Shown: piece by piece, positions 1-5,153 of the stretch
How positions within the stretch are numbered: position 1 is the stretch's first letter
Layout: each line of letters begins with the position of its first letter
Notes under the pieces: model-generated
What the model was told of the DNA's origin: nothing
Database searches by the model: none
What the model saw: the letters and a program-made list of their open reading frames with translations, nothing else
Made by a program: the position numbers and the translations under genes
From: a virus
Lineage: Duplodnaviria > Heunggongvirae > Uroviricota > Caudoviricetes
DNA: 5,153 nucleotides
Virus record (IMG/VR): IMGVR_UViG_2690316028_000001
Coordinates: 1-5,153 of that record
Direction: 5' to 3' (one strand)

Positions 1-44
1 AGAGGCGTGTCCAAGCGAGGGGGATATCTTCAATATTGAGGTAA
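1..44 (+). CDS. 3' end of an upstream gene (partial, start outside window)
   Basis: Frame 3 is open from position 3 to a TAA at 42-44, which overlaps the ATG at 44-46 of the next gene (TAATG). Only about 14 codons are visible, so identity is unknown. Confidence 0.3.
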   Translation, partial: RRVQARGISSILR

Positions 45-661
45 TGCCGCTCTACACCGTCCCTCCAGCGCCGGTATCTGTGCCCGCTGCGATGGAAATG
101 GATGATGACTTTGACAGCGCGTTTGAACACGGAAAAGCTGTCGGCTGGAACGCCTATCGCGCCGCCATGCTTCAGGCCGAACCTGTAAGTAATAGTGATG
201 AGTTACCGCTGGACTATCTGCAAGGACACAAAGACGGCCTGGAGTGGGCTGCACAATTGGCAGAAGCCAATCATCCACAAACAGGTGACTGGCTGTACGA
301 TGACCCAATCGATCTTGCACGGGCGATTAGCAAAGGTCCAGATATGCCTACCGCTCAGGCTGGCAACCATACCGAGCAACACCTCTACATGGTAGACCAT
401 TCTGGTGATGCCAACAAAATGGTGGCTGGCAACTCTCCGGTGATTCCGGATGGATGGAAACTTGTTCCGATTGACCCAACAAAAGATATGTTGCGTGCTG
501 GACAATCGGTGGTTGGGTTCTGGCTGAATACAGTGCATTGCTACTCGAAAATGCTCGCCGCCGCACCAGCAGCGCCGAAGCAGGAGGTTACTCAGGCGCT
601 TGCCAAAGGCATGGAACGTTATGGCGATGCCATGCAAAAACTCGCAGATAGTGGTGACTGA
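44..661 (+). CDS. Hypothetical phage protein, 205 aa, function unknown (nin-region accessory gene)
   Basis: Long ORF in the same orientation as the flanking phage genes, with GAGG at 38-41 and a TAATG stop/start overlap with the upstream frame. Acidic N-terminus (MEMDDDFDSAFEH) and Ala/Pro-rich tail. I recognise no family or catalytic motif. Confidence 0.6.
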   Translation: MPLYTVPPAPVSVPAAMEMDDDFDSAFEHGKAVGWNAYRAAMLQAEPVSNSDELPLDYLQGHKDGLEWAAQLAEANHPQTGDWLYDDPIDLARAISKGPDMPTAQAGNHTEQHLYMVDHSGDANKMVAGNSPVIPDGWKLVPIDPTKDMLRAGQSVVGFWLNTVHCYSKMLAAAPAAPKQEVTQALAKGMERYGDAMQKLADSGD

Positions 662-688
662 TTTTTGGTAATCATTTTTCAAAAGTGA

Positions 689-697
689 TGTTATAAT
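689..697 (+). promoter_or_regulatory. Candidate extended -10 promoter element (TGtTATAAT)
   Basis: TGTTATAAT at 689-697 matches the extended -10 consensus TGnTATAAT exactly; there is no good -35. The predicted start (~704-706) falls at the beginning of the hairpin region. Confidence 0.3.
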
Positions 698-698
698 T

Positions 699-760
699 AA
701 GTCGCAGTCGGTCTGAACAGCCGGTTGCGACTTCTGCGCATTTAAGGGGACTTAAATGCG
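699..760 (+). promoter_or_regulatory. Tandem stem-loops in the intergenic region upstream of ninB (possible tR2-like terminator or RNA regulatory structure)
   Basis: Hairpin 1: 699-711 (aagtcgcagtcgg) pairs with 721-733 (ccggttgcgactt), 13 bp including two G-U pairs, 9-nt loop. Hairpin 2: perfect 10-bp stem 737-746 (cgcatttaag) with 751-760 (cttaaatgcg), GGGA loop. Neither is followed by a U-tract. Confidence 0.35.
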
Positions 761-847
761 ACCACAATCTGAACTCCTCACCTTGTCACAGATGCAGAAA
801 TGCACCTGCGATTTTCTTCATTCTGCGTTACCTCTCGGAGGTGGCGT

Positions 848-1285
848 ATGAAACAGCCTGTTTTCTACCTCCGCGACGAACGCGTTCGCGATAACCTCAT
901 CGACTACATCAGGAAGCTGCCTGTTAACGACGCTCTGCCGCTCGTGGTGAAGTTTTCTGAGGCTGACCGCACTCTCGCCCAAAACGACCTCTTCCACGCT
1001 CTCTGTGGCGATACAGCGAAGCAATTGCAATGGGCTGGCAAGTCGCGCGACCTCGCTTCATGGAAAGTCCTGTATGTCTCAGGCCATGCCATTGCCACCG
1101 GTAAGCCTGGTGAAGTGGTGCCGGGTCTGGAAGGGGAGTTCTGCGCCATCCGGGAAAGCACTGCGAAGATGGGCATCCGTCGCATGACCAGTCTCATCGA
1201 ATACAGCCAGGCATTTGCTGTGCAAAACGGCGTGCAACTCCGTGAAGTTCGCTACTCAGGTGATTACTTCGGGAGGGTTGCGTAA
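848..1285 (+). CDS. ninB: NinB (Orf-family recombination mediator), 145 aa
   Basis: Resembles lambda NinB in length and sequence pattern (e.g. LAQNDLFHALCGD...QWAGK...ASWK versus lambda LDQNRKLWACLGD...EWHGR...ESWK, from memory). GGAGGTG at 837-843 sits a few nt before ATG 848. The ORF-track start at 800 has no RBS and adds a non-homologous extension. Confidence 0.85.
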   Translation: MKQPVFYLRDERVRDNLIDYIRKLPVNDALPLVVKFSEADRTLAQNDLFHALCGDTAKQLQWAGKSRDLASWKVLYVSGHAIATGKPGEVVPGLEGEFCAIRESTAKMGIRRMTSLIEYSQAFAVQNGVQLREVRYSGDYFGRVA

Positions 1286-1455
1286 TGGCTAGCCCTCTCG
1301 CTCGCATCATCACCAACGAAATCTACCGGGTCCGGACACGCACTAAGCGCAAGCCTGAACTCAAGCCATCCGAAATCCCATCACTGCTCGGCTACACCGC
1401 GCGACTGACCCAGGTGAAATGGGATCGCCTGAAAGCGCGGAGGTCACATGGCTGA
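1285..1455 (+). CDS. ninE: NinE-like small basic protein, 56 aa
   Basis: Not in the ORF track (under 60 aa). ATG 1285-1287 overlaps the ninB stop (TAATG). Translation [56 protein letters not shown] is basic with a W-D/I-R-(W/L) motif, like lambda NinE (about 60 aa). Confidence 0.65.
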   Translation: MASPLARIITNEIYRVRTRTKRKPELKPSEIPSLLGYTARLTQVKWDRLKARRSHG

Positions 1456-1738
1456 TTTGAGAAAAGCAGCGCGTGGTCGGGAATGCCAGGTAAGAATCCC
1501 TGGCGTATGTAATGGCAATCCTGAAACGTCTGTACTGGCACATATCCGGCTGGCTGGATTGTGCGGCACCGGTATTAAACCGCCAGACCTTATTGCCACC
1601 ATTGCATGCTCTGCCTGTCACGACGAGATCGACCGCCGTACACATTTTGTCGATGCTGAGTATGCTAAAGAATGCGCGCTGGAAGGTATGGCGAGAACGC
1701 AGGTTATCTGGCTGAAAGAGGGGGTAATCAAGGCATGA
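1448..1738 (+). CDS. ybcO: DUF1364 / YbcO-like Cys/His-rich protein (putative His-Me finger nuclease), 96 aa
   Basis: GGAGG at 1439-1443 four nt before ATG 1448; overlaps the ninE 3' end by 8 nt. Cys/His-rich ([12 protein letters not shown]...[11 protein letters not shown]...CSACHDEID). Sits between ninE and rusA as ybcO does in DLP12. Confidence 0.7.
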
Positions 1739-2097
1739 ATACTTACAACATCACATTGCCCTGGCCGCCGAGCAATAACCGCTACTACCGCCATAATCGC
1801 AGGCGCACGCACATCAGCACAGAGGGGCAGGCGTACCGCGACAGTGTCGCCAGAATCATCAAAGACTCAATGCTGGATATCGGCCTGGCTACACCCGTGA
1901 AAATACGCATTGAGTGCCATATGCCGGATCGCCGCCGCCGCGACCTGGACAATCTGCAAAAGGCCGCGTTCGACGCCCTGACGAAATCCGGGTTCTGGCT
2001 CGATGACCAACAAGTCGACTACTACAGCGTGAAGAGAATGCCGGTCGTCAAAGGCGGCAGACTTGAACTGACCATTACTGAACTTGAGTCCGCATGA
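1735..2097 (+). CDS. rusA: RusA Holliday-junction resolvase, 120 aa
   Basis: N-terminus [28 protein letters not shown]... and the core ...[38 protein letters not shown]...GGRLELTI match my recollection of E. coli RusA (120 aa). ATG 1735 overlaps the ybcO-like stop (ATGA). The ORF-track start at 1672 adds an unsupported 21-aa extension. Confidence 0.9.
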
Positions 2098-2234
2098 CAT
2101 TCGAATCCTACTTTGCTGATCATCTTCGTCTGCGATGGACTCGGTTACGCATCTATCGTCACCCGGGTTCATTTGCTACGGACTACCGAATACTGAAGAA
2201 TTACGTGAAAACTTATGCTGGAGAAGCGCTATGA
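2094..2234 (+). CDS. ylcG: Small basic protein, 46 aa, YlcG-like (DLP12 rusA-Q intergenic ORF)
   Basis: Not in the ORF track. ATG 2094 overlaps the rusA stop (ATGA) and its TGA at 2232-2234 overlaps the Q ATG (ATGA). Translation [46 protein letters not shown]. Same size and position as DLP12 ylcG. Confidence 0.5.
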
Positions 2235-3061
2235 ACCTTGAAAACACAGTGAAATACCACTTCGCAAAATCCACGCTGATTAGCGATTCTCCGCGCGCTA
2301 CCGCCTCCGATTCACTGACCGGTACCGACATCATGGCGGCAATAGGCATGACTCAGGAACGCGCTGCTATGGGGTACAGTGCTTTCCTCGGCAAGATGGG
2401 CATAAGCAATAACGACCGGGATCGGGCTATCGGACTGCTGGCTGAGTACGCGATGACCAAATGTGACAAGGTTGCCGCGCTGCGTAAGTTGGATTTCGGG
2501 GTTAAGCCTCAGGTGATGTACCAGTTGGCCACCTTCGCATTTGAGGATTATTCCCGCAGCGCAGCCAGTGTAAAACGGTGCGATTGCTGCAACGGTGAGG
2601 GCTTTATTGATGCTGAGGTATTCAGTATGAAAACCAATACGCCGGCACATGCAAAAGAAATCATTAAGGCATCAAAAGCGTTTGGTTTGAAGGTGATACC
2701 TTCGCAGCACCAAAACAGGCGTGAGGTAAAAGAGATAACGCGCGTTCTCTGTCCTCAGTGCAAAGGGAAAAAAGCCATCAGTTGCGCATGTAGTGATTGC
2801 CGTGGCCGTGGGAAAGCGGTGAATCAGAAGGAAACGAAGCAGCAAGGCGTTCCAGTATTCAGCACCTGCAAGCGCTGTGGCGGTCGCGGATATGAGCGCA
2901 TCCCGTCAACTGAGGCCCACGCAGCTGTTTGCCAGATTACGGATGTAATCAGCCTGGATACGTGGAAGAAGTCCGTTAAACCGTTCTATGATCAGCTGAT
3001 TACGAAATTCGATATTGAAGAGGCATGGGCAGAAAACCAACTGAAACAAATAACACGATAA
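2231..3061 (+). CDS. Q: Late-gene antitermination protein Q (long Q family, Cys-rich zinc-finger region), 276 aa
   Basis: N-terminus [33 protein letters not shown]... resembles enterobacterial prophage Q proteins as I recall them. GGAG at 2220-2223 seven nt before ATG 2231. Four CxxCxG-type Cys pairs. Immediately followed by a PR'/tR'-like region and the lysis genes. The ORF-track start at 2135 has no RBS. Confidence 0.85.
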   Translation: MNLENTVKYHFAKSTLISDSPRATASDSLTGTDIMAAIGMTQERAAMGYSAFLGKMGISNNDRDRAIGLLAEYAMTKCDKVAALRKLDFGVKPQVMYQLATFAFEDYSRSAASVKRCDCCNGEGFIDAEVFSMKTNTPAHAKEIIKASKAFGLKVIPSQHQNRREVKEITRVLCPQCKGKKAISCACSDCRGRGKAVNQKETKQQGVPVFSTCKRCGGRGYERIPSTEAHAAVCQITDVISLDTWKKSVKPFYDQLITKFDIEEAWAENQLKQITR

Positions 3062-3087
3062 CGGCTATGGAAGTTAATTCCAGCTAT

Positions 3088-3125
3088 TTACTTTTCCCGA
3101 ATCTGTGTTAATTTTATCCCAACGA
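3088..3125 (+). promoter_or_regulatory. PR'-like late promoter with expected qut (Q-utilisation) site
   Basis: -35-like TTTACT at 3088-3093 and extended -10 TGtTAATTT at 3106-3114, followed by CAACGATGGGTTAATTCGCTCG, which closely resembles the lambda PR' initial transcribed/pause region as I recall it. Exact +1 not determinable here. Confidence 0.45.
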
Positions 3126-3317
3126 TGGGTTAATTCGCTCGTTGTGGTAGTGAGATAAAAAGAGGCGGCGCTTACTACCGATTCCGCCTAGTTGGTCACT
3201 TCGACGTATCGTCTGGAACTCCAACCATCGCAGGCTGAGAGGTCTGTAAAATGCAATCCCGAAACAGTTCGCAGGTAATAGTTAGAGCCTGCATAACGGT
3301 TTCGGGATTTTTTATTT
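3121..3317 (+). ncRNA. 6S-like short late leader transcript (PR' to tR')
   Basis: About 195 nt between the putative PR' start and the tR' U-tract, the length class of the lambda 6S RNA. The sequence looks near-identical to my recollection of the lambda PR'-tR' leader. Confidence 0.4.
3255..3317 (+). terminator. tR'-like intrinsic terminator (the terminator Q-modified RNAP reads through)
   Basis: Outer stem 3257-3265 with 3299-3307 (tcccgaaac / gtttcggga), inner stem gcagg 3271-3275 with cctgc 3288-3292, followed by TTTTTTATTT at 3308-3317. Confidence 0.7.
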
Positions 3318-3392
3318 GGGTCAGTCGTATAAAGGTCATTACGGAAGGCTGTTAACCTTCTTATCGTGGTTCGAGTCCACGCTGTCCCGCCA
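3318..3392 (+). tRNA. tRNA-Asn (anticodon GUU), phage-encoded
   Basis: Manual cloverleaf. Acceptor 3318-3324 with 3382-3388 (6/7 bp, one U-U mismatch), U8, D stem 3327-3330 with 3339-3342, GG in the D loop. Anticodon stem gaagg 3344-3348 with ccttc 3356-3360, loop CUGUUAA (anticodon 3351-3353). T arm cgtgg-TTCGAGT-ccacg (3365-3381), discriminator G3389, encoded CCA 3390-3392. Confidence 0.65.
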
Positions 3393-3442
3393 AATACCTA
3401 CCAGGACCATAAGAGCAAAAGCTCAACGCACTACCCTCTATT

Positions 3443-3468
3443 GCCCACCGCGCCGTGGGCTTTTTTAT
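3443..3468 (+). terminator. Intrinsic terminator downstream of the tRNA
   Basis: GC-rich stem gcccac 3443-3448 with gtgggc 3455-3460, 6-nt loop, followed by TTTTTTATT from 3461. Confidence 0.6.
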
Positions 3469-3574
3469 TGCAGGCCGCAGATATCATTTTCAGATGCCAT
3501 GTAGCAATCAGAGTCTGACGGCCTTTCCCCTACAAACACACACAGCACCATCCGGAAAATCGGAGGTGAGGCCT

Positions 3575-3898
3575 ATGATAATGCCATACAAACAAGATTT
3601 CATCGCTGCGCTACTTGCCGCCAAGGAGCAGGGTATTGGTGCAATGCTGGCTTTTATCATGGCGTATCTGCGTGGTCGCTATAACGGCGGCGCGGTAACA
3701 AAAACGCTAATTGATGCGCTGATGTGCGCGATGATTGCCTGGTTCGTTCGTGACCTTCTGGACTTTATCGGCCTGAGCAGCAACCTCGCCTACATAGCCA
3801 GCGTCTTTATTGGATACATCGGCACCGATTCGATCGGCAATCTTATTAAAAAACTTGCAGCAAAAAAGGCGGGAGTTGACGATGCAAACCAGTCCTGA
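3575..3898 (+). CDS. S: Class I holin, lambda S family, 107 aa
   Basis: Translation [39 protein letters not shown]...[22 protein letters not shown] is very close to my recollection of lambda S107 ([39 protein letters not shown]...). Dual in-frame starts ATG 3575 and ATG 3581 (Met1-Ile2-Met3); GGAGGTGAGG at 3562-3571. Confidence 0.9.
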
Positions 3899-4331
3899 CG
3901 GAATTGCTCTGATAAAAAAATTTGAAGGTTGTCGGCTGACTGCTTACCCCGACCCCGGAACGGGAGATGCGCCGTGGACCATCGGCTATGGCTGGACCCA
4001 TCCGGTTGACGGAAAGCCAGTAAAGCGCGGTATGACTATCGACCAGCAAACCGCTGACAGGCTTCTGAAAACAGGGCTTGTTGGTTATGAGAATGACGTG
4101 CTGAAAGTTGTCAGGGTGAAGCTGACACAAGGCCAGTTCGACGCACTGGTGTCGTTCGCTTACAACGTTGGGTCGCGTGCTCTTTCCACATCTACACTGC
4201 TGAAAAAGCTGAATGCTGGCGATATAAAAGGCGCGGCAGATGAATTTCTGCGCTGGAATAAATCAGGCGGAAAGGTGATGCCGGGGCTCACGAATCGCCG
4301 CAAGGCAGAGCGAGCTCTGTTCCTGTCATGA
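3882..4331 (+). CDS. Endolysin, GH24 phage lysozyme (P22 gp19-like), 149 aa
   Basis: N-terminus [24 protein letters not shown]...TIGYGWT and C-terminus ...[11 protein letters not shown] resemble P22 gp19 lysozyme (recalled), with the T4-lysozyme-type Glu-8aa-Asp...Thr catalytic arrangement. No signal or SAR sequence. GGGAG at 3871-3875 before ATG 3882; 17-nt overlap with the holin 3' end. Confidence 0.9.
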
Positions 4332-4801
4332 TTAGCGCACTGGTTAAGCGTTACTGGCTGCAGTTGCTGGTGCTGGCGTTAATCGGCGCACTGGCTTTCT
4401 TCGTGAACCACTACCGCGACAACGCCATCACCTACAAAGACCAGCGCGACAAAGCCACCAAAAGTCTCCGCCTGGCTAACGACACCATCAAAGACATGCA
4501 GACCCGTCAGCGCGATGTCGCTGCACTGGATGCCAAATACACGAAGGAATTGTCCGATGCTAAAAAGACCATTAACGATTTGCGTCGTGATGTCGATTCT
4601 GGCGCTAAACGGCTGCGCATCGCTGCAACCTGCCCTGGAGTGCCAAAAGCCACCTCCTCCACCGGCGTGGATGATGCAGGAGCCCCCGAACTTACTCCAG
4701 ACGCTCGACGGAATTATTTCGATCACCGGGACGGAATCGCAACCGCTGACAAAATGATTCGCGGCATGCAGGACTACATCAAAGAGCAGTGTCTTAAGTG
4801 A
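4328..4801 (+). CDS. Rz: Rz i-spanin (inner-membrane spanin subunit), 157 aa
   Basis: ATG 4328 overlaps the lysozyme stop (ATGA). Hydrophobic N-terminal segment ([17 protein letters not shown]) followed by a charged, coiled-coil-like periplasmic domain. Position and architecture are typical of Rz. Confidence 0.85.
4557..4757 (+). CDS. Rz1: Rz1 o-spanin (outer-membrane lipoprotein) embedded in the +1 frame of Rz, 66 aa
   Basis: [22 protein letters not shown] gives a lipoprotein signal with lipobox LNGC, followed by the proline-rich [13 protein letters not shown] (lambda Rz1 has [14 protein letters not shown] as recalled). AAGGA at 4543-4547 before ATG 4557. The ORF-track start at 4515 is upstream of the signal peptide and less likely. 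Confidence 0.8.
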
Positions 4802-4820
4802 TTCGTCACCCAAATAACAG

Positions 4821-4848
4821 AGCCTGACTTCGGTCGGGCTTTTTTATT
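4821..4848 (+). terminator. Intrinsic terminator after the lysis cassette
   Basis: Stem agcctgac 4821-4828 with gtcgggct 4833-4840 (8 bp, one U-G), TTCG tetraloop, then TTTTTTATT. Confidence 0.7.
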
Positions 4849-4872
4849 CCCAGAAGAAGCAGGAGAAGAAGC

Positions 4873-5073
4873 ATGTTAACAGTAAAAGTAATGTCGCCAG
4901 GTGGCGGTGAAGAGATTCATTGCGGGTTGAGTGTAGGGTTCAATCCGGGGCAGCAGAGCATCGCGGTATCGGGAATGGACAAAAATGTATTCCTGAAACC
5001 TGGCGAGGTCGCCTACGTGATGAACCAGAACGGGAAGACGGTATCTCGTTACGAGCATAATGACCGCCAGTAG
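4873..5073 (+). CDS. Hypothetical small protein, 66 aa, function unknown
   Basis: Strong RBS AGGAG at 4861-4865 seven nt before ATG 4873. Gly-rich soluble product (MLTVKVMSPGGGEEIHCGLSVGFNPGQQ...). No family recognised. Lies between the spanins and what would be the packaging genes. Confidence 0.45.
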   Translation: MLTVKVMSPGGGEEIHCGLSVGFNPGQQSIAVSGMDKNVFLKPGEVAYVMNQNGKTVSRYEHNDRQ

Positions 5074-5153
5074 CCATTCCAAAGCTCACCTGCTGGTGGG
5101 CTTGATAATGGATATCCCCCTGAGCGGATAAATCAAAAATAACCCCTGCAACG

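Follow-up and report, generated by a model that had tools for sequence, protein, structure and literature searches.

A modular accessory gene upstream of ninB in a lambdoid prophage and its relation to the EaA, DUF551 and Ea22 mosaic network

Introduction

Ea22 is the described phage system with which the gene considered here is most readily compared. It is a mosaic protein in which a conserved N-terminal and coiled-coil part is followed by variable acidic C-terminal domains, and it is expressed early and is non-essential (PMC10834534). The lambda protein is tetrameric and pro-lysogenic (PMC10834534, PMC7093339), and the intragenic mosaicism of Ea22-type genes has already been described. The subject of the present analysis is an open reading frame (ORF) at the left end of a 5,153-nucleotide stretch of Caudoviricetes DNA (IMG/VR record IMGVR_UViG_2690316028_000001, positions 1 to 5,153; hereafter the window). 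Its product was singled out in a preliminary description, made from the sequence alone, as the only sizeable protein of the window that could not be placed in a known lambdoid family.

The window protein has counterparts in the same genomic position. Protein gp52 of phage phi80 (PHI80_52, annotated as 'similar to N15 gp45'), the RefSeq protein WP_250192539.1 and four full-length relatives, P0001-P0004, are all encoded after the replication genes and before a structured spacer and ninB. The likeness of these proteins covers an MSTIT... N-terminus, the linkers, and the acidic and central modules. The phi80 protein is colinear and 74.5% identical over 72% of the part encoded in the window, but its second module and its C-terminal cassette (VMVPVELTPDM...AAAPQWKVK) are not the same, and it lacks both a 66-nucleotide insert and a tail that are found in the window copy.

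There is also a second group of relatives. The 'EaA protein' of Salmonella phages 65FD/66FD and of mEp043, as well as ORFs of HK140 and of Escherichia phage Louie (gp22), have the central module and the linkers in common with the window protein, the 65FD EaA protein also has a related tail (VKTALEHGMQRYAGAMQKL), and ORFs of HK225 fall into the same mosaic network. The N- and C-terminal modules of the EaA-type relatives differ from those of the window protein, with Louie gp22 ending in a true DUF551 domain. The location also differs: the two relatives whose surroundings were inspected, those of 65FD and Louie, lie in the early-left region beside recombination-type genes and not in the nin region, and in Louie an integrase and an excisionase are also nearby.

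The likeness to lambda Ea22 is one of described architecture only. There is no sequence similarity, this copy has no match to the Ead_Ea22 family (PF13935), and the genomic position is different, but a sibling locus (L010) carries a real Ead_Ea22 domain. DUF551 (PF04448; for example YfdS of the Escherichia coli prophage CPS-53), itself an uncharacterised domain (PMC4776307, PMC10834534), is related to the window protein in another way. It is an alternative C-terminal module that siblings carry at the same GNSPV(T/I)PDGW linker, and it is the source of the name given to such proteins by the Prokaryotic Genome Annotation Pipeline (PGAP); the domain is missing from the window protein when searched with the hidden Markov model (HMM).

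Extent of the Gene at the Left Edge of the Window

Window positions 2-661 on the plus strand very probably represent the 3' three quarters of a single gene with a length of about 284 codons, which starts some 200 nucleotides before the window, is located in the early rightward operon of a lambdoid prophage, and belongs to the EaA/DUF551/Ead_Ea22 mosaic network. The ORF listing of the window contains an ATG-initiated ORF of 205 codons at 44..661 (+), and such a listing gives the first start codon inside the window only. Translated from base 2, the same frame has no stop and reads EACPSEGDIFNIEV-MPLYTVPP.... The ORF thus continues beyond the left edge of the window, and the ATG at 44 is merely the first start codon inside it. 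The stretch at 2..661 (+) would thus hold the last 219 codons and the stop codon of a gene of about 284-294 codons.

The missing 5' part can be read from relatives. An exact search with window positions 1-59 retrieved 23 loci (21 viral contigs and two E. coli prophages), and in 22 of them the frame extends for a further 194-290 nucleotides upstream to an ATG. The complete ORFs at these loci encode 188-465 amino acids, with N-termini that are mostly MSTIT(R/K)E. The same exact 59-mer was not found in genome_contigs. The most informative locus is L039, the contig carrying P0001, which differs from window positions 2-661 at one nucleotide in 660. Its gene encodes 284 amino acids and starts 194 nucleotides before window base 1 (MSTITRE...), with a GGAGGA at a spacing of 7 nucleotides. 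At a further locus, L038, the gene encodes 294 amino acids. From these relatives, the 5' end of the window gene is placed at approximately 194-224 nucleotides before the window.

At the protein level, P0002-P0004 (284-294 amino acids) are 99% identical across the 219 window codons. P0001 (284 amino acids) was reported as 100% identical over all of them, but the aligned proteins have one difference, D for Y at codon 129. This codon (window positions 386-388) is TAC, for Tyr, in the window, and Asp stands here, within an HLDMV motif, in all the close relatives that were inspected (P0001-P0010, L038 and L039). A 39-mer with the Tyr variant was not found in viral_contigs or genome_contigs.

The frame is also under constraint. 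In comparison with more distant relatives, the changes at codon positions 1, 2 and 3 number 7/1/14 and 6/1/14, so that 22 and 21 nucleotide changes result in only 4 and 3 amino acid changes. This bias towards the third codon position shows that the ORF is a real, constrained coding sequence.

These results bear on the limits of the gene as given in the preliminary description. The ORF reported as a 205-amino-acid protein at 44-661 is real, but its true length would be about 284 codons and its start would lie elsewhere than at the ATG at 44, as the longer ORFs of relatives indicate. The Ala/Pro-rich C-terminus was correctly noted, since the stretch MLAAAPAAPKQE is present in the translation. 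The acidic stretch described as the N-terminus (MEMDDD...; MEMDDDFDSAFEH) is present too, but because the longer relatives show a start upstream of the window it reads as internal, at about residue 96 of 284. Similarly, the letters TAATG do stand at window positions 42-46, but in the longer ORF they read as the codon pair GTA-ATG (Val-Met) and not as a stop/start overlap.

Modular Organisation

Comparison with siblings shows that small portable modules follow one another along the protein, separated by the conserved linkers PLYTAPPAP, AAMLQ..EPVSN, GNSPV(T/I)PDGW and AAAPQQE. The DNA breakpoints relative to other members, at approximately 47, approximately 84, 171-180, 367, 424-458 and 568, correspond to the linker motifs. 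Homologous recombination at these conserved Pro/Ala-rich linkers would swap modules between phages.

All modules are encoded on the plus strand. The window opens with the end of a module (...AHRLINKRNGVVHPWVYGSAEACPSEGDIFNIEV, positions 2-43), close to the first two breakpoints (approximately 47 and 84). This is followed by the linker (M)PLYTVPPAP at 44-73, which contains the ATG at 44 and is adjoined by the out-of-frame TAA at 42-44. An acidic module (VSVPAAMEMDDDFDSAFEHGKAVGWNAYRAAMLQ) occupies 74-175, ends in ...MEMDDDFDSAFEHGKAVGWNAYRAAMLQ at the breakpoints of 171-180, and leads into the linker AEPVSN at 176-193. In P0001 the acidic module corresponds to residues 89-128 (segment 74..193 without the final SN) and has an isoelectric point (pI) of approximately 4.1. 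Alternative modules replace it in the siblings L006, L016 and L021.

The central module (SDELPLDYLQGHKDGLEWAAQLAEANHPQTGDWLYDDPIDLARAISKGPDMPTAQAGN, positions 194-367) is shared more widely than any other part of the protein. Among the top 150 cluster representatives, the best-matching stretch is in most cases approximately query residues 50-123, and the module also occurs in phages of Klebsiella, Vibrio and Aeromonas. The third-position bias of 7/1/14 applies to this module. Next to it is an extra in-frame segment of 66 nucleotides (HTEQHLYMVDHSGDANKMVAGN, positions 368-433), bounded by a 10-nucleotide direct repeat, GGCTGGCAAC (D2), at 358-367 and 424-433. The segment is present in P0001-P0010 and absent from most relatives, which jump from 367 to 424. 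On this comparison, it looks like the product of an insertion or deletion through recombination between the short repeats.

After the linker SPVIPDGW (434-457), the C-terminal part consists of a portable cassette and a tail. The cassette, of the type 'VPxxPT...AAAP' (KLVPIDPTKDMLRAGQSVVGFWLNTVHCYSKMLAAAPAAPKQE; KLVPIDPTKDML...YSKMLAAAPAAPKQE), spans 458-586 and was included in the structure modelling reported below. It is found nearly unchanged behind unrelated N-termini, including in proteins of only 76-139 amino acids. At least 12 alternative cassettes have the common frame PDGW-x-h-VP-x-x-x-T-x-x-M ... AAP, and 2181 proteins match its profile. The tail VTQALAKGMERYGDAMQKLADSGD (587-658, or 587-661 with the stop codon) is portable, is modelled as helical (model residues 56-76), and in other proteins follows DUF551 domains (P0139 and P0140), a Lar domain (P0146) or other cassettes.

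The domains that give the network its names appear as exchangeable parts. In the siblings Louie gp22 and P0063, a true DUF551 domain stands at the place of the cassette, and in L010 an Ead_Ea22 N-terminal domain is fused to exactly the module with which this window opens. By these sequence relationships, the gene is part of the Ead/Ea22-DUF551-EaA mosaic network, yet this copy carries neither Pfam domain.

Family Placement

Scans with Pfam and NCBIfam gave no family match for the window protein or for its full-length relatives. The same libraries gave no match to the characterised families of the nin region (NinB, NinE, NinG/Rap, the NinI phosphatase, RusA, YbcO, methyltransferases and Q), an outcome that agrees with the preliminary description. 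Among the PADLOC defence-protein HMMs, only DpdD was returned, at a level of noise (E 0.02, 10.8 bits), and a sequence search of the PDB returned nothing below E 0.5.

Matches were found among the PHROG families. P0001 matches phrog_60 (1.6e-35) and phrog_12449 (1e-17), and the window ORF matches phrog_12449 (2e-18) and phrog_60 (3.8e-18); PHROGs 5117, 660 and 5913 were also matched. All of the matched PHROGs are of unknown function. Relatives are numerous. Among representatives of clusters at 50% identity, 2007 match at E <= 1e-3, 828 at E <= 1e-10 and 190 at E <= 1e-30. A tblastn search found matches in 62 cultured-phage records, and the labels of all the listed ones are hypothetical, EaA, DUF551 or, in the case of Louie, Lar-like. 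Some part of window positions 1-900 is matched in 1298 of 5426 complete E. coli genomes, but only three of these cover at least 80% of it.

The sequence evidence thus places the protein among prophage accessory proteins of unknown function, in a family that is very common and heavily shuffled; the protein is ordinary and not new. The statement that it could not be placed holds with respect to characterised families and solved relatives. It does not hold with respect to catalogued ones, since the protein belongs to the large family of phrog_60 and phi80 gp52 and is 99-100% identical to database entries. Near-identical proteins are already in public databases under family names, and the window contains no element of a new kind.

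One of these names requires comment. RefSeq and PGAP name the closest E. coli relatives, for example WP_250192539.1, 'DUF551 domain-containing protein'. Membership of DUF551 was taken as an HMM score at or above the gathering score of 22 bits, and the domain typically ends in ...THWMPLPEPP. Even at E <= 1, PF04448 had no match in the window protein or in four full-length relatives, among them the RefSeq protein (= P0006), whose DNA identity from window base 47 onwards is 99.3%. The positive controls were recovered, Louie gp22 with 74.5 bits (1.2e-20) and P0063 with 36.9 bits (7e-09). From these scans, it appears that the DUF551 name has been propagated across the mosaic family to members that do not have the domain. 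The label is also found on members without Pfam DUF551 at L001 5761-6615, L003 3777-4529, L004 3807-4529 and L026 2265-3053.

For Ead_Ea22 the outcome was similar: PF13935 had no match in the window protein or its full-length relatives, and the sibling L010 has a true domain (55.4 bits, 1.2e-14). A BLASTP comparison with lambda Ea22 gave E 2.5, which is no similarity. The label 'Lar-like restriction alleviation protein' on Louie gp22 was considered as a lead and rejected, since DUF551 is the only domain that Pfam finds in that protein. The Lar family (PF14354) matched neither the window protein nor Louie gp22, and P0146, which shares the tail module, is the only protein with a Lar domain.

Structure and Composition

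An AlphaFold2 model of full-length P0001, based on an alignment of 83 sequences, has a mean predicted local distance difference test score (pLDDT) of 46.6. Residues 1-84 reach approximately 65-75, and residues 85-223 remain below 50. This model was too poor for a fold search and was not used.

The C-terminal module gave a better result. Modelling of window positions 422-658, with an alignment of 119 sequences from diverse cassette-bearing proteins, reached a mean pLDDT of 82. The model has an extended segment (PDGWKLVPIDPT) followed by helices at 21-28, 37-47 and 56-76. A fold search with it matched no solved fold, and in BFVD it matched only proteins that are uncharacterised and are encoded by phages of Salmonella, Pseudomonas, Ralstonia, Burkholderia, Xanthomonas and Aeromonas. 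No solved relative was obtained by sequence or by fold.

The protein is acidic, with a pI of 4.5-4.7 and a net charge of -19 to -20. None of these results points to an enzyme.

Possible Role

By analogy with Ea22, the product of this early-operon gene may be an acidic binding protein that is non-enzymatic and made up of several modules. Among the roles considered this one has the best support, but it is proposed tentatively, at somewhat less than even odds. When the identity of the gene and its mechanism are taken together, a blended probability of about 0.6 seems appropriate. The non-enzymatic part of the proposal follows from the lack of a Pfam, NCBIfam or PADLOC family, and from the pI and charge given above. 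As for binding, oligomerisation and biological role, we infer a scheme that would work as follows. The N-terminal helical part and a small beta unit would act as a common scaffold and possibly as an oligomerisation region, the exchangeable C-terminal cassettes would each bind a host or competitor protein, without catalysis of a chemical reaction. Overall, the protein would tune early phage development or host physiology, as was reported for lambda Ea22, which favours lysogeny.

Several points weigh against this proposal and the gene model on which it builds. Firstly, neither similarity to Ea22 nor an Ead_Ea22 HMM match is detectable, and the functional analogy consists of the architecture and the shared modules only. 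Secondly, in the literature searched (eaA/eaE with P22, phrog_60) there was no functional study of, or experiment on, this exact family. Thirdly, the 5' end lies outside the window and the continuity of the gene is deduced from relatives, one of which, L007, is an exception: it is the only one of the 23 loci in which an in-frame stop is met, about 116 nucleotides upstream. Fourthly, judging from the full-length model, the middle modules may be disordered or merely under-sampled.

A different role is conceivable for the same gene. It could be a dedicated counter-defence protein, whose cassettes would be inhibitors of, or decoys for, restriction, exclusion or abortive-infection proteins and would have diversified in an arms race. 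The cassettes do resemble alleles with conserved frames in hypervariable accessory slots, the tail module is fused to the Lar restriction-alleviation domain in P0146, and siblings occupy the ea region beside recombination genes. In addition, no other gene lies between this one and the structured spacer upstream of ninB, and this is roughly the position where lambda carries ren. On the other side, this copy has no Lar domain, no anti-defence activity has been reported for any family member in the literature searched, and the cassette is almost invariant across contexts, which looks like recent shuffling and not like rapid escape by point mutation. A 2026 preprint put forward the hotspots linked to recombination in lambdoid phages, the ea region among them, as reservoirs of anti-immunity proteins. 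It also described Oad2, an inhibitor of OLD that it reports to be related to P22 EaE. However, BLASTP against the EaE-like protein of phage 65FD, the sole EaE-type sequence compared and a stand-in for the EaE family, gave E 1.7 and thus no similarity. A dedicated counter-defence function is considered unlikely on this balance.

A more speculative idea, with a clearly smaller chance of being correct, concerns the architecture itself. The linkers and cassettes might be a diversification device, in which the unit of approximately 45 amino acids, 'PDGW-hVP-x-E-P-T-x-x-M ... AAAP', would be a new mini-fold without a counterpart in the PDB. Its variable middle would set the binding specificity towards various host or defence proteins, and lambdoid phages would exchange cassettes at the linkers so as to retarget a single scaffold protein. 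If true, this would make the protein a modular counter-defence or host-takeover adaptor.

It is very unlikely that the gene is functionless recombination debris, which stays open only through in-frame pieces of other genes. The mosaicism is indeed extreme, with breakpoints at short repeats such as the 10-nucleotide repeat around the 66-nucleotide segment, and confidence is low in the central part of the full-length model. Debris would not be expected to agree with the intact ORFs at 22 of 23 loci, with substitutions biased to third positions, or with thousands of cluster representatives. Moreover, the model of the C-terminal module is a confident one, and conservation of this module extends to phages of Pseudomonas, Ralstonia, Burkholderia, Xanthomonas and Aeromonas.

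Still less probable is the arrangement first described, in which a stand-alone protein of 205 amino acids starts at the ATG at 44 and is coupled through TAATG to a gene ending at 44. That ATG is the first in-window start of its frame, there is a GAGG just upstream of it, and at L007, given its in-frame stop, it is the first ATG. However, the GAGG is the only such element and is just 2 nucleotides away, as compared with the GGAGGA 7 nucleotides from the upstream start. The frame that ends at the TAA at 42-44 is frame 3, which in all 23 loci has 29 open codons and its first ATG, GTG or TTG only two codons before the TAA. An upstream partner with a usable start is therefore missing, the supposed downstream frame is itself open to base 2, and translational coupling is not supported. 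A single long ORF is found in 22 of the 23 loci and in the near-identical L039. At L007 (IMGVR_UViG_2660237954_000011), where the stop lies about 120 nucleotides upstream of the match to window positions 1-59, a longer ORF can be read further upstream in a different frame. Either a frameshift within a run of A (GCCGAAAAACACGC) or a faulty assembly would account for this. As first framed, the start codon, the length and the coupling read as artefacts of the window edge.

That this is a genuine DUF551-domain protein can practically be dismissed: RefSeq does give the name to WP_250192539.1 and others, but PF04448 finds nothing at E <= 1 in the window protein, the equivalents of P0001 or phi80 gp52, and it does match siblings in which a sequence ending in ...THWMPLPEPP replaces the C-terminal cassette of this copy.

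The significance of the window itself is little. The useful outcome is a corrected gene boundary, a correction to the 'DUF551' name, and a map of the modules, one of which has been modelled with confidence. The family is large, comprising 2007 clusters at 50% identity with at least one common module and occurring in approximately a quarter of complete E. coli genomes. If one member became accessible to experiment, thousands of prophage genes would gain an annotation, and this is a property of the family and not of the window.

Genomic Context

The gene occupies a hypervariable accessory slot just upstream of ninB and after the replication genes. In other prophages, this slot is populated by Ead_Ea22, DUF551, HNH and DUF4014 genes, and it is already known as a hypervariable accessory region. 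The gene is not unusual cargo, its family being resident in the slot in many lambdoid prophages. Neighbouring genes of the window match NinB, YbcO, RusA and Antiterm above the cut-offs, while the match to NinE is weak (22.5 bits against a cut-off of 25). A NinB look-up for the sequence upstream of the window returned only other mosaics.

The spacer of 186 nucleotides between the gene and ninB contains two adjacent strong hairpins at 699-733 and 737-760 (+; inverted repeats I3 and I4), which are outside the protein. The fold of 655-850 has z = -4.08, and a T-run is absent after both hairpins. In phi80 the homologous site carries the annotation IR4, and the features under the HK639 match include a terminator.

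None of the 5426 complete E. coli genomes contains window positions 1-5153 as one piece, and the highest coverage is 71%. This makes the prophage a mosaic of individually common segments. The closest colinear pieces of the window are in Logan contigs and in Enterobacter and E. coli prophages.

Several features were observed further downstream. A Q-type antiterminator ORF at 2135-3061 (+) matches Pfam Antiterm in two stretches, with a sub-threshold match to the DnaJ CXXCXGXG zinc finger. Its start is ambiguous, as it overlaps a small ORF at 2094-2234 that is positioned like the YlcG genes of relatives and has no Pfam match. Between the Q antiterminator and holin genes, in the late-promoter region, there is a phage-borne cargo gene for tRNA-Asn (anticodon GTT) at 3318-3392 (+), and downstream of it a terminator-like GC hairpin with a T-run at 3443-3460.

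In the lysis cassette, an ORF at 4515-4757 (+) lies in another frame within the Rz gene (4328-4801). It has a proline run and, by eye, a lipobox-like LNGC, as would be expected for an Rz1-type outer-membrane spanin nested in Rz. After the lysis cassette there is a 66-amino-acid ORF at 4873-5073 (+) with no Pfam match. At the same position, the relatives L001 and L004 have an annotated hypothetical protein of 66 amino acids, WP_000958715.1, the likeness being one of position and length alone.

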